The notes under the pieces: model-generated | The model's input: only the letters and a program-made list of their open reading frames with translations | Databases searched by the model: none | Told to the model about the DNA's origin: nothing | In this document: one piece after another, positions 28,217-30,298 of the stretch | Layout of the letters: every line of letters starts with the position of its first letter | How positions within the stretch are numbered: the first letter of the stretch is position 1 | NCBI RefSeq assembly: GCF_001644705.1 | Contig: NZ_CP015137.1 | Location: 3,120,001 to 3,152,000, forward strand | Direction: 5' to 3' | DNA length: 32,000 nucleotides | Source of the DNA: Dickeya solani IPO 2222 | GTDB taxonomy: Bacteria > Pseudomonadota > Gammaproteobacteria > Enterobacterales > Enterobacteriaceae | Made by a program: the position numbers and the translations under genes

Positions 28217-30298
28217 ATGCTTGACGACAGCACGGCGCTGCCCCGTTTACGTCAGGAACTGCAACTGGAGTCCAGTCCCGGCAACGACGGAGAGATGAGC
28301 TGGCGCATTTACGATCCCTGGCAGCATCGTTTCTTTCAGTTGCCGGAAAGTGACGTGATGCTGATTTCCCGGCCCGGCTGTCGCACCATTGGTCAACTGA
28401 AACCGTTGCTGGATTCGTATGGGCTGCGTTTCGATATGGAGCAGTTCGGTTCGCTGACGCTGTTTCTGCGCCAGCAGCACCTGCTGATGGCGCAGGACTA
28501 CGCGGCATCGGCGGAAGAAAAGCCCAAGGCGCTGTTGCTGCGCAAACCCAGTGTCCGGCAACTGTCGTTATGGGACCCGATGCCGCTGTTGCATCTGGTA
28601 GCCGGACACCATCTGCGCTGGCTTACCCGCGCGTTGTTGACGCTCTGGCTGATAGTCACGCTGGTCGGGTTGTATCTGACGGCCAGACAGTGGGACAGCT
28701 ACCTCGCCACTTTCCGGGATTTCTATTCGCTGCAAGGCGTGCTGGGGTTTGGCGTGGCGATCCTGTTTCTGAAATGGTTTCACGAAATGGGGCATGCCTT
28801 TGTGGCGTATCGTCAGGGCTGTCGGGTAGGGAAAATGGGCATTTCCCTGTTTGTTATCTTTCCGATGTTTTACACCGACCTGACCGACGCGGCGCGGGTG
28901 GTCCAGCCGCGTCGCCGGATGTGGATTGCGCTGGGCGGCGTGGGAGCCGAGACGCTGATCGCCGGTCTGGCTACCGCGGGGTGGGCGTTGTTGCCGCCGG
29001 GTACGCTGCGTTCCATCTGCTTTGTGCTGGCGACCACCAGTTGGGTGACGACGCTGGCTATCAACCTTAATCCGTTTTCCCGTTTTGACGGTTACTACTT
29101 TTTAAACGATCTGACCGGGGTGGATAACCTACAGCCGCGCTCGCGCTCGCTGCTCAATTATTACTGGCACCGGTGCGTATTGGGGCCGGTGCTGGACAAA
29201 CCGGAGCCGGTGGGTGGCCTGCGCCCCAAGCTGATGGCGCTGTATGGCCTGATGGTGCTCGCGTATCAAATGTTTCTGATTCTGGGCATCGGCTATCTGG
29301 CTTACCGGTTTTTCATCCCGATGATCGGGATACTGATATTCGCTTATATCCTTTATCACTATCTGCTGCTGCCGCTTGTGCTAATGGGGAGAGATATGGT
29401 TCGACACCGGGAGAAAATAACCTGGAGACGCAAACTGGTGCTGACGTTGCTGCCGTTCGTGGCGATTGTCGCCTTTTTTTGCCCGCTTCCCCGTACCGTT
29501 AATATCCCCGCGATGGTGAATATCCAGGGGCAAACCCTGATTCACACGCCGGATAAAGCGCGGCTGGAGACGGTCGCCATCGGTAATGGCGACCGGGTAC
29601 GGCAGGGACAGGTGCTACTGCGCTTTTCCTCACCGGAACTCACCTTCCAGCGCGAGCAGGCGATGATGGAGCATGATCTGATGCAGTTCCGGCTCAACCG
29701 CATCAGCAGCTCCGAGGCGGAAAAACTGGAAACCGTGACGCTGCGGCAGAAGTTGCAGGAAGCGGAAGAAACGCTGGTCGGGCTGGATAACCAACTGGCG
29801 CAGTTGGTCTGGCGTTCACCTGTCGATGGCGTGGTGGTGGATCTGCTAGCCAACCTGCAGCCGGGGCAGTGGTTCTCGCCGGATCAGACCATCGGCCGGA
29901 TTCTGGAAGGCGACAAACAGGACATCATTGGCTATGTGGATGAAACCTTTGTCTCCCGTCTGTCGCCCGATCTGAAGGGGAAGTACATCCCCAATAACCT
30001 GTCGATGCCGTCCCTGCCGGTCAACGTTGAACAACTGGATCCGAACAGTTCCGAATTTATCACCCCAAAATCCCTCAGCGTCCTGTACGGCGGGCCGATC
30101 GCGTCGCTGAAAAATGATAAAGGGGATGCGGTACCGGTGGTGGCGATGCACCGAATACAGTTTCTGTTTAGCGACGCCAGTCTGCCCGACCAGCAGGCGT
30201 CGCAGGGCGTGGTGGTGTTGCGGCTGGCGCCGGAGAGCCTTGCCAGTCAGTCGGGAAAACGGTTGTGGCGTTTGATTATTGCCGAACTTAACCAGTAA
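28217..30298 (+). CDS. Soluble N-domain (PqqD/RRE-like by pattern) :: M50 site-2-protease membrane core :: MFP (HlyD-like) C-terminal domain, 693 aa
   Basis: The ATG at 28217 lies 2 nt after the upstream stop. HExxH (HEMGH) is at 28781-28795 inside a TM segment. The second S2P motif NxxPxxxxDG (NLNPFSRFDG) is at 29063-29092. There are at least 6 hydrophobic helices. After the last TM (LVLTLLPFVAIVAFFCPLP) comes a lipoyl-like TLIHTPDKARLETVAIGNGDRVRQGQVLLRF, a coiled coil, and VWRSPVDGVVVDLLANLQPGQWF. The ORF-track start at 28157 was rejected. Confidence 0.8.
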   Translation: MLDDSTALPRLRQELQLESSPGNDGEMSWRIYDPWQHRFFQLPESDVMLISRPGCRTIGQLKPLLDSYGLRFDMEQFGSLTLFLRQQHLLMAQDYAASAEEKPKALLLRKPSVRQLSLWDPMPLLHLVAGHHLRWLTRALLTLWLIVTLVGLYLTARQWDSYLATFRDFYSLQGVLGFGVAILFLKWFHEMGHAFVAYRQGCRVGKMGISLFVIFPMFYTDLTDAARVVQPRRRMWIALGGVGAETLIAGLATAGWALLPPGTLRSICFVLATTSWVTTLAINLNPFSRFDGYYFLNDLTGVDNLQPRSRSLLNYYWHRCVLGPVLDKPEPVGGLRPKLMALYGLMVLAYQMFLILGIGYLAYRFFIPMIGILIFAYILYHYLLLPLVLMGRDMVRHREKITWRRKLVLTLLPFVAIVAFFCPLPRTVNIPAMVNIQGQTLIHTPDKARLETVAIGNGDRVRQGQVLLRFSSPELTFQREQAMMEHDLMQFRLNRISSSEAEKLETVTLRQKLQEAEETLVGLDNQLAQLVWRSPVDGVVVDLLANLQPGQWFSPDQTIGRILEGDKQDIIGYVDETFVSRLSPDLKGKYIPNNLSMPSLPVNVEQLDPNSSEFITPKSLSVLYGGPIASLKNDKGDAVPVVAMHRIQFLFSDASLPDQQASQGVVVLRLAPESLASQSGKRLWRLIIAELNQ

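Follow-up and report, generated by a model that had tools for sequence, protein, structure and literature searches.

A Putative Leader-binding, Intramembrane Protease and Adaptor Fusion Protein as the Candidate Inner-membrane Subunit of a Proposed Export Machine for Giant Proteins

Near the end of a 32,000-nt stretch of DNA from Dickeya solani IPO 2222 (contig NZ_CP015137.1, positions 3,120,001–3,152,000 of the forward strand; called the window throughout and numbered from its first letter), a gene at 28217–30298 encodes a single polypeptide of 693 residues. This protein combines an N-terminal domain like the recognition elements (RREs) of RiPPs (peptides made on the ribosome and modified after translation), the membrane core of a site-2 protease (S2P) and a C-terminal periplasmic adaptor domain of the membrane-fusion protein (MFP) type. 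We propose, with a probability that we put at about 60%, that a conserved envelope-spanning machine for leader-bearing giant adhesin-like proteins has this protein as its signature subunit in the inner membrane, and that the protein docks and cleaves the leader and is coupled to a TolC-like duct. Such a machine would consist of a TolC-like outer-membrane factor (OMF) and three MFP paralogues, serving giant proteins with an N-terminal LEPR-type leader. The analysis established the domain architecture and topology of the protein, the conservation of its catalytic residues and its synteny with genes for an OMF, adaptors and a leader-bearing giant protein.

Domain architecture and topology of the fusion protein

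The open reading frame (ORF) lies on the + strand, as do the four other genes of its operon and all features within them described below, and runs from an ATG at 28217 to a stop codon at 30296–30298. The ATG follows a G-rich stretch and is 2 nt past the stop codon of the preceding gene (28212–28214), and the N-termini of 90 homologues favor it over a longer GTG start at 28157. As reference we used an alignment of 90 full-length homologues (27–93% identity), on which an AlphaFold2 model was built with a mean pLDDT of 85.4 and a pTM of 0.65. Pfam recognized Peptidase_M50 (27.3 bits, cut-off 27.2) together with HlyD_D23 and HlyD_3, and the top NCBIfam match was NF041824, the daptide biosynthesis intramembrane metalloprotease, over residues 66–394 (E 1.5e-34; 119.7 bits vs a cut-off of 300). 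In the model, strands 16–21, 27–33 and 38–43 are followed by helices 44–50, 58–67 and 74–86 and a strand at 113–119; the membrane part has long helices at 131–157 and 172–199, a β-hairpin at 207–220 and further helices at 231–258, 263–283, 336–365, 368–396 and 403–421; and the C-terminal part is a β-rich domain with an α-hairpin at 473–528. An earlier note on this DNA, written from the sequence alone, had proposed a three-part fusion, and all three of its domain assignments (RRE-like, S2P and MFP) held under testing.

The first 100 residues (28217–28516) form a predicted cytoplasmic domain that had been described as soluble and RRE/PqqD-like. The N-terminal sequence quoted in support of that description is present in the protein, and no hydrophobic segment occurs ahead of approximately residue 131. 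Because a direct Pfam scan of residues 1–145 of the window protein returned no family, even at E ≤ 10, the RRE assignment rests on profiles and structure. Models of the full-length protein and of the domain alone agree on a three-stranded antiparallel sheet followed by three helices, the RRE-type fold (order β1-β2-β3-α1-α2-α3; pLDDT ~82). The top Foldseek match was the lasso-peptide RRE TbiB1 (5v1u, 5v1v; probability 0.82–0.91, TM-score 0.58–0.62 on the target), with a superposition over 88 columns at a root mean square deviation of 3.5 Å and a non-significant E of 0.22, and a further match was the RRE of the sactipeptide enzyme CteB. When a profile of 38 N-domains was searched against 177,635 PDB sequences, two matches only were obtained, PqqD (3g2b) with an end-to-end alignment at E 0.16 and the RRE of the lasso type TfuB1 (6jx3, E 1.1); a single-sequence phmmer search of the PDB gave insignificant adaptor matches only. 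PqqD was also the sole Pfam family matched by more than one of the 38 homologues (three members, best E 0.0077), and hhalign of the domain with PqqD gave a P of 0.0014 and a probability of 18%. Homology to the daptide protease family adds to these matches, the members of that family having been found through their N-terminal RRE (daptide paper). Trp-29, Asp-33 and Phe-83 are invariant in the 90 homologues. RREs thus rank top in the fold and profile searches, each match being weak, and because the individually weak signals all agree we accept the domain as RRE-like and regard this as very probable.

The membrane core (residues 131–421; 28607–29479) comprises seven transmembrane (TM) helices and a re-entrant β-hairpin, as judged from hydropathy, the AlphaFold2 model and profile matches to the M. 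jannaschii S2P (mjS2P) and RseP. The zinc-binding and catalytic motif HEMGH (residues 189–193; 28781–28795) sits at the end of helix 172–199, on the cytoplasmic side of TM2, and the NxxPxxxxDG-type motif NLNPFSRFDG (residues 283–292; 29063–29092), found by alignment in another TM segment, contains Asp-291, the presumed third zinc ligand. Both motifs lie exactly where the earlier note had placed them. Hairpin 207–220 (28835–28876), which DSSP assigned on the model, follows HExxH and presumably occupies the place of the membrane-re-entrant β-loop of RseP-type S2Ps. His-189, Glu-190, His-193, Asn-283, Asp-291 and Gly-292 are invariant in the alignment; orthologs lacking HExxH would have spoken against an S2P, and the motif is kept in 90 of 90 homologues. 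The invariance of both catalytic motifs supports the suggestion that the protease is probably active, as a predicted activity. The full-length protein passes the PF02163 gathering score marginally (27.3 vs 27.2), the 1–400 fragment stays below it (26.4 bits), and the family profile matched S2P structures over the HExxH helix (mjS2P, 3b4r, E 0.004; RseP, 7w6x, E 0.008). The fusion protein is, on sequence grounds, a predicted S2P by its motifs, and by Pfam only at threshold.

The last ~270 residues, also taken earlier for an MFP, match solved adaptors by both Foldseek and profile over residues 424–693 (29486–30295), which include the α-hairpin. A Foldseek comparison of the whole model with the PDB returned only periplasmic adaptors (MacA, Spr0693, MexA, ZneB, EmrA and AcrA; E 1e-13 to 1e-10), the family profile matched MacA (1e-11) and HlyD of the HlyBD type 1 system (8dck, 2e-11), and Pfam HlyD_3 scored 24.7 on the C-terminal fragment against a cut-off of 22.2. 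By its modelled fold the domain is an MFP, consistent with the lipoyl, α-hairpin and β-barrel make-up of that family. Averaged over the 90 homologues, the predicted cytoplasmic loops contain 17.4 lysine and arginine residues vs 3.2 in the periplasmic loops, and a strongly basic loop (GRDMVRHREKITWRR) precedes the last TM helix. Because of these loop charges, the RRE-like domain and the active site are predicted by the positive-inside rule to be in, or to face, the cytoplasm and the adaptor domain to be in the periplasm, which supports the N-in, C-out orientation that had been suggested. With the adaptor domain on the periplasmic side in the predicted topology, an OMF partner is found in the same operon. 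As a separate feature of the gene, a 17-nt direct repeat (GAAATTAACCAGTAACT × 1.9) at 30284–30316 extends across the fusion stop codon into the gap before the downstream TctC gene.

The conserved operon and its giant protein

In a pattern scan that took one genome for each species, homologues of the fusion protein were confirmed in at least 593 species, and because of this conservation the gene is not a chance ORF. Gamma-, Alpha-, Beta- and Zetaproteobacteria and Nitrospira are represented among the matches listed. With the RRE and S2P part as query, 985 clusters (50% identity) were obtained at E ≤ 1e-30, and ~140 of the best 150 matches are 690–750 residues long, from which we take the best matches to be mostly fused to an adaptor. 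Fusion is, as far as these sequence lengths indicate, the rule in the clade.

In the window the fusion gene is the last of five translationally coupled genes, which run in the series giant protein, OMF, adaptor 1, adaptor 2 and fusion. For a synteny sample, 85 loci were fetched, making 86 with the window (individual loci are given L numbers). The fusion gene closes the module, and an adaptor 2 homologue lies immediately 5' of it in 84 of the 85, with adaptor 1 in 76 and an OMF in 50. Clustering of all ORFs from the 86 loci revealed three conserved families only around the fusion gene, namely adaptors (86/86), giant proteins (56/86) and OMFs (49/86); other giant ORFs are present in ~10 further loci, and most of the remaining exceptions are contig ends. 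The same five genes make up a self-contained module on a Kosakonia plasmid of 80 kb. Within the 86 loci no ATP-binding cassette (ABC), resistance-nodulation-division (RND) or major facilitator superfamily (MFS) partner is conserved with the module, nor is any sigma/anti-sigma gene or modification enzyme. ABC-like ORFs occur in 10 loci, 7–9 kb from the module (one of 688 residues, the others of 242–369). Walker A and ABC signatures are absent from all of the operon proteins, and Pfam and NCBIfam scans revealed no C39 or ABC domain. The absence of an ATPase, as the earlier note had phrased it, is therefore upheld for the operon and its conserved neighborhood.

The giant protein, the presumed substrate, is a real neighbor of 3308 residues (14445–24371), and consists of a leader, a linker, a DUF4347 domain and then 30 cadherin/Big_9 repeats. 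The leader motif, LERRLMFDAAAVATAD (residues 38–53; 14556–14603), is a variant of the consensus LEPRxxFD(G/A)AxAATxA(E/D). The corresponding leader regions read VLERRLMFDAAAVATAD in the window, ALEPRMMFDGAVAATAAE in E. mendocina, ALEPRIAFDAAAVATAA in Hyphomicrobium, AQEKRLMFDAAALVSAE in Celerinatantimonas and SLEPRMLFDGAIAATVHE in Kosakonia. A six-frame search with a regular expression found the motif in 44 of the 86 loci, on giant ORFs, with one spurious match elsewhere. It lies 10–67 residues from the first methionine of the giant, with one exception at 124 residues (L010). Its Glu, Arg and Asp are invariant in 42 of 42 sequences, although the expression permitted alternatives, and positions outside the constraint of the expression, A-A-T-x-A-(E/D), are likewise conserved. 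The extension ahead of the leader is basic and non-hydrophobic and therefore not a Sec signal; none of the giant proteins has a Sec signal, and the window giant has no GGxGxD (RTX) repeats. Behind the leader comes a disordered acidic linker of ~46 residues rich in Ala, Ser, Asp, Thr, Gln, Glu and Pro, and then DUF4347. The leader motif appears clearly related in sequence to the NCBIfam model NF012209 (LEPR-XLL, short name LEPR-8K), which scored 14.2 bits on residues 23–41 of the L002 giant (E 0.025, cut-off 17).

In the earlier note, either the N-terminus of the giant or an unannotated small peptide had been considered as the substrate. The first of these candidates is favored by the conserved leader motif, and identification of the giant protein as the substrate is supported by comparative genomics. 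The second is not supported, since no small ORF bearing the motif was found in the six-frame search of the 86 loci. The interval 14231–14444, the one intergenic space of the operon region, to which that note had pointed as a place for small-peptide ORFs, contains only unconserved short ones; in 14225–14450 the ORFs of at least 20 residues are unconserved and were rejected as a product of the AT-rich region. Mutual information was explored over the top 2% of column pairs, where the leader paired with the RRE and the linker 1.6–1.8-fold, with the S2P 0.77-fold and with the MFP 0.93-fold. This exploratory leader-RRE covariation was not taken as proof because it is only 1.6-fold and confounded by phylogeny.

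At the other end of the giant, alignment of C-termini revealed a conserved extreme C-terminal motif (VTVEQQLQTIAMREQQALRDLIRALS; 24291–24368) of the form EQLxQ, 12–16 residues, LLxxL. It is ~25–30 residues long, apparently amphipathic, and present in 11 of 14 complete C-termini, those of the window and of L001, L005, L039, L040, L055, L057, L063, L064, L068 and L082; it may be a second, type 1-like signal or a docking element. The DUF4347 domain (residues 97–242; 14733–15170) has invariant SHG and YGC motifs whose layout recalls a His/Cys dyad, and it may act here as a plug, a protease or in another role. Homologues sought with the N-terminus of the giant came to 13 short DUF4347 proteins only. 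The solved PDB entry 9QPE chain G bears the title "DUF4347 domain-containing protein", and a separate paper mentions DUF4347 for the putative Pseudomonas type 6 secretion effector PA0256. No functional description of LEPR-XLL, or of DUF4347 in this context, was found in the literature. The ~30 repeats of the giant gene are nearly identical and ~100 residues each (NCBIfam tandem-95 repeat; Pfam Big_9/Cadherin_4/5), and as a by-product they create long spurious reverse-strand ORFs, for example at 15984–17909 and 18984–20945.

Of the genes between giant and fusion, the first encodes a TolC/NodT-type OMF of 508 residues (24384–25910), assigned by Pfam and NCBIfam, with a putative lipobox in its N-terminal MMTGC. 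Adaptor 1, the third adaptor paralogue, has 316 residues from an ATG at 25907 that overlaps the OMF stop codon (25907–26857) and begins with a signal or anchor sequence. Two tandem DNA repeats lie in frame in its gene, one of 15 nt × 4.3 at 25972–26035 giving (G/R)PENS units after the signal sequence and one of 18 nt × 4.9 at 26746–26834 giving SVISKP units at the C-terminus; both encode low-complexity tails of potentially variable length. Adaptor 2, the second paralogue (454 residues; 26850–28214), has an overlapping start, an N-terminal domain (residues 1–185; 26850–27404), a TM helix at residues 192–210 and then the MFP part. Its N-terminal domain is conserved and cytoplasmic, with the motifs VNETRxLxxYxQA, LWxPL...GGLxLxRxxPW and a terminal YxHAWxAL. 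It has no Pfam match, and a PDB profile search gave only the starts of phytochrome GAF domains at E 0.17, so that calling it GAF-like is a guess; it could serve as a sensor or as a second receptor for the substrate.

In 12–17 Pseudomonas and enterobacterial loci, lineage-specific accessory genes stand between the module and the giant gene (e.g. L002, 12112–15579; L086, 16134–18241). They encode phage-tail-collar ("tail fiber") proteins of ~195–225 residues, a GNAT acetyltransferase, a sulfotransferase and an Asp/Arg hydroxylase, which are candidates for tailoring enzymes or for partners of the giant. The LEPR leader is absent from the collar proteins. As core genes the collar, acetyltransferase, sulfotransferase, hydroxylase and TctC genes (the last in 4 loci) were rejected, being lineage-specific. 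TctC genes, for the receptor of tripartite tricarboxylate transporters, lie downstream in the window at 30331–31317 and 31368–32000; one to four such paralogues follow the module only in the closest relatives of the window (L001, L005, L006 and L088), and there is no TctA or TctB within the window. Upstream, at 5584–11856, are an unrelated two-component system and RND pump (the pump at 7649–11856, with its own adaptor), followed by a TraF_2-family gene on the minus strand (11917–13164) and, directly 5' of the giant gene, a HxlR/MarR-like regulator (13706–14230) that may regulate the operon.

A proposed mechanism and its alternatives

Given this combination of domains and partners, we propose a three-step mechanism. 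The cytoplasmic RRE-like domain would capture LEPRxxFD(G/A)AxAATxA(E/D), probably as an added β-strand, in the way that RREs engage RiPP leaders. A small-residue segment downstream of the leader would then be brought to the cytoplasm-facing S2P site and the leader removed. Finally, the fused adaptor domain and the two paralogous adaptors would bridge to the outer-membrane duct and so couple processing with cargo export. The binding of the leader, the site of cleavage, the transport direction and the source of energy are parts of this scheme that we infer. Docking, cleavage and coupling are the most economical reading because five anatomical features combine: a cytoplasmic leader-binding fold, a cytoplasm-facing metalloprotease, a periplasmic adaptor, two further adaptors with an OMF, and a cargo with a leader-like tag and no other export signal. 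There is a precedent for an RRE-S2P fusion in the daptide peptidase MpaP, for which RRE-dependent removal of a leader has been proposed (daptide paper). Because the C-terminal motif of the giant and the cytoplasmic domain of adaptor 2 are both conserved, an arrangement of two signals and two receptors, or a type 1-like C-terminal signal, is possible.

Several points weigh against the proposed docking and cleavage of the leader. Taken one by one, the sequence and fold matches of the N-domain to RREs all fall short of significance (E 0.008–0.2); binding of the leader by this domain is a prediction; and the leader-RRE covariation is weak. The window giant (LERRLMFD) has no NCBIfam LEPR score, and its conserved C-terminal motif could itself be the real secretion signal, as in type 1 secretion, or the true ligand of the RRE. 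At L032, a locus whose flanks are complete, the module is present with no adjacent giant gene. No inner-membrane translocation channel or energy source was recognized in the module, and S2Ps are not known as protein translocators.

The alternative that survives best is a type 1 secretion system (T1SS) with an unlinked ABC transporter. The giant would be exported C-terminus first with its C-terminal motif as the signal, the adaptors and the OMF would be the conduit, and the RRE-S2P part would do no more than trim the N-terminus, or check its quality, as transport ends. The amphipathic motif in 11 of 14 complete C-termini, the likeness of the adaptor region to HlyD of the HlyBD T1SS (8dck, E 2e-11) and a cargo that resembles T1SS adhesins in being repetitive, rich in cadherin/Big domains and free of a Sec signal are all what it would predict. 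T1SS genes for the ABC transporter and the MFP are usually adjacent, however, and a T1SS-type ABC gene was found in 0 of 86 loci, the ABC-like ORFs of the 10 loci being small, importer-like and 7–9 kb away; the giant is also without RTX repeats. We therefore consider this explanation unlikely.

We judge somewhat more unlikely a retention and release system of the LapD/LapG kind, in which the giant would be tethered through its leader, linker and DUF4347, the S2P would cut the tether and the N-domain of adaptor 2 would sense the control signal. The conserved 185-residue cytoplasmic domain of adaptor 2 with its faint GAF-like matches would suit such a sensor, a leader that has a long disordered linker and then a folded domain behind it resembles a retention module, and the leader motif contains small-residue pairs (AA, GA and AT). 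The GAF assignment is non-significant (E 0.17), however, and because the S2P site faces the cytoplasm a cut would free a duct-plugged protein only if the chain spanned the whole conduit; the first crossing of the inner membrane would also be left unexplained.

Less probable than either is a small RiPP or bacteriocin exporter-maturase of the daptide or YydH type, with an unannotated short peptide as the substrate and the giant as a bystander. Short precursor peptides are the usual ligands of RREs, the daptide protease is the nearest named family, and a JGI/KEGG-style name in use is "putative peptide zinc metalloprotease (yydH)". The operon is so tightly packed, however, that there is no space for a peptide gene, and the 214-nt region 5' of the giant gene holds unconserved short ORFs only. 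The leader was found only on giant ORFs in the six-frame search, no modification enzyme is conserved across the loci, and on the daptide model the protein scores 119.7, a long way under the cut-off of 300. Equally improbable is ordinary regulated intramembrane proteolysis, with an anti-sigma factor or another membrane protein as the target, or a mere adaptor role for a drug or metal pump. One annotation pipeline does call the protein an efflux adaptor, and an RND pump lies elsewhere in the window (7649–11856). However, the module is accompanied by no conserved sigma/anti-sigma, RND, ABC or MFS gene, that pump comes with an adaptor of its own and shows no synteny at the other loci, and linkage to leader-bearing giants is nearly universal.

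Returning to the leader-docking machine, a bolder version of it would be a new class of secretion across both membranes, in which an RRE reads a LEPR leader (the first such case for a protein of thousands of residues), an S2P removes the leader, and a TolC-like duct completes the path with no dedicated ATPase, driven by the proton-motive force or by folding of calcium-binding repeats outside the cell. We put this forward tentatively and consider it less likely than not. If true, it would provide a TolC-dependent route of protein secretion without a linked ABC transporter and would give RRE domains, so far a matter of peptide natural products, a place in protein secretion. Many Proteobacteria, and Nitrospira as well, have giant LEPR-XLL/DUF4347 proteins, whose export route and the function of whose tag are undescribed in the searchable literature; tying this tag to one particular conserved machine of four genes and to a specific reader domain makes the question testable. 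Tractable hosts include the Pseudomonas fluorescens group, Azospirillum brasilense and the 80-kb Kosakonia plasmid with the whole module.

RRE-S2P fusions and MFPs are each already known. In the searchable literature we found no description of the triple fusion, of a module with three adaptors and an OMF, or of near-obligate linkage to LEPR-type giants; searches combining S2P or M50 with HlyD, MFP or adhesin, or RRE with HlyD, gave only the daptide paper as relevant, and "M50" text matches in efflux reviews were false (a residue M507 and a DOI). The PGAP name in two plasmid records (Kosakonia and Azospirillum; L086 and L087) is only "HlyD family efflux transporter periplasmic adaptor subunit". 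Homologues are elsewhere called "peptidase M50", "site-2 protease family protein", "biotin/lipoyl-binding protein" or, by JGI, "putative peptide zinc metalloprotease protein", and none of the annotations inspected mentions the RRE or the combined architecture.

Comparison with known systems

In the daptide protease MpaP/DapP (NF041824) an N-terminal RRE precedes an M50/S2P core that contains HExxH and a motif of the NPxxxxDG type, and the protease is homologous to residues 66–394 of the window protein (E 1.5e-34). In contrast to the fusion protein, MpaP is ~380 residues long, has no periplasmic adaptor domain and comes from a Gram-positive actinobacterium, Microbacterium paraoxydans. Daptide substrates are short and encoded beside tailoring enzymes, whereas here there are an OMF, two adaptors and a presumed substrate of 2,000–8,000 residues. 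The daptide tailoring set (aminotransferase, decarboxylase and methyltransferase) is neither in the window nor conserved in the loci. Because its score is far under the cut-off (119.7 vs 300 bits) and tailoring genes are missing nearby, we rejected the fusion protein as a daptide protease.

Canonical S2Ps such as RseP, SpoIVFB and the M. jannaschii enzyme share HExxH and NxxPxxxxDG in TM helices, a β-hairpin after the first motif and an active site on the cytoplasmic side. The fusion protein differs from them in having no PDZ or CBS domain and no linked sigma/anti-sigma factor, and in carrying an N-terminal RRE-like domain and a C-terminal MFP. On the side of the cargo, the NF012209 LEPR-XLL family, for which no function or secretion partner was found in the literature, likewise combines extreme protein length with a short N-terminal motif of the LEPRxLL type. 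Among the module giants, some read LEPRVLLDAA exactly, although most read LEPRxxFD and fall under the cut-off (14.2 vs 17 bits). The LapA-LapG-LapD-LapE system resembles the module in encoding a giant repetitive adhesin together with a dedicated TolC-like duct, in having a partner with a cytoplasmic sensor-like domain and in having the N-terminal region of the adhesin as the target of a dedicated protease, the last being proposed here for the module. LapA relies on an ABC-driven T1SS and a periplasmic cysteine protease, however, neither of which is present in the module.

Close parallels in layout are peptidase-containing ABC transporters (PCATs) and the T1SS HlyB-HlyD-TolC, where a cytoplasmic module that recognizes a leader or signal is fused to the export machinery and is combined with a HlyD/MacA-like MFP adaptor, a TolC-family duct and a cargo without a Sec signal. 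The module differs in having three adaptor paralogues rather than one and an intramembrane metalloprotease as its protease. It was rejected as a T1SS, since an MFP and an OMF are present but no ABC gene, in the operon or conserved in the 86 loci, and no RTX repeats, and as a PCAT, since the Pfam and NCBIfam scans gave no C39 or ABC domain; the lack of an ABC transporter, a C39 peptidase and RTX repeats thus sets it apart from both. By analogy, we propose that the fusion system would act like a PCAT or T1SS in which an RRE and an S2P take the place of the C39 peptidase, with no linked ATPase.

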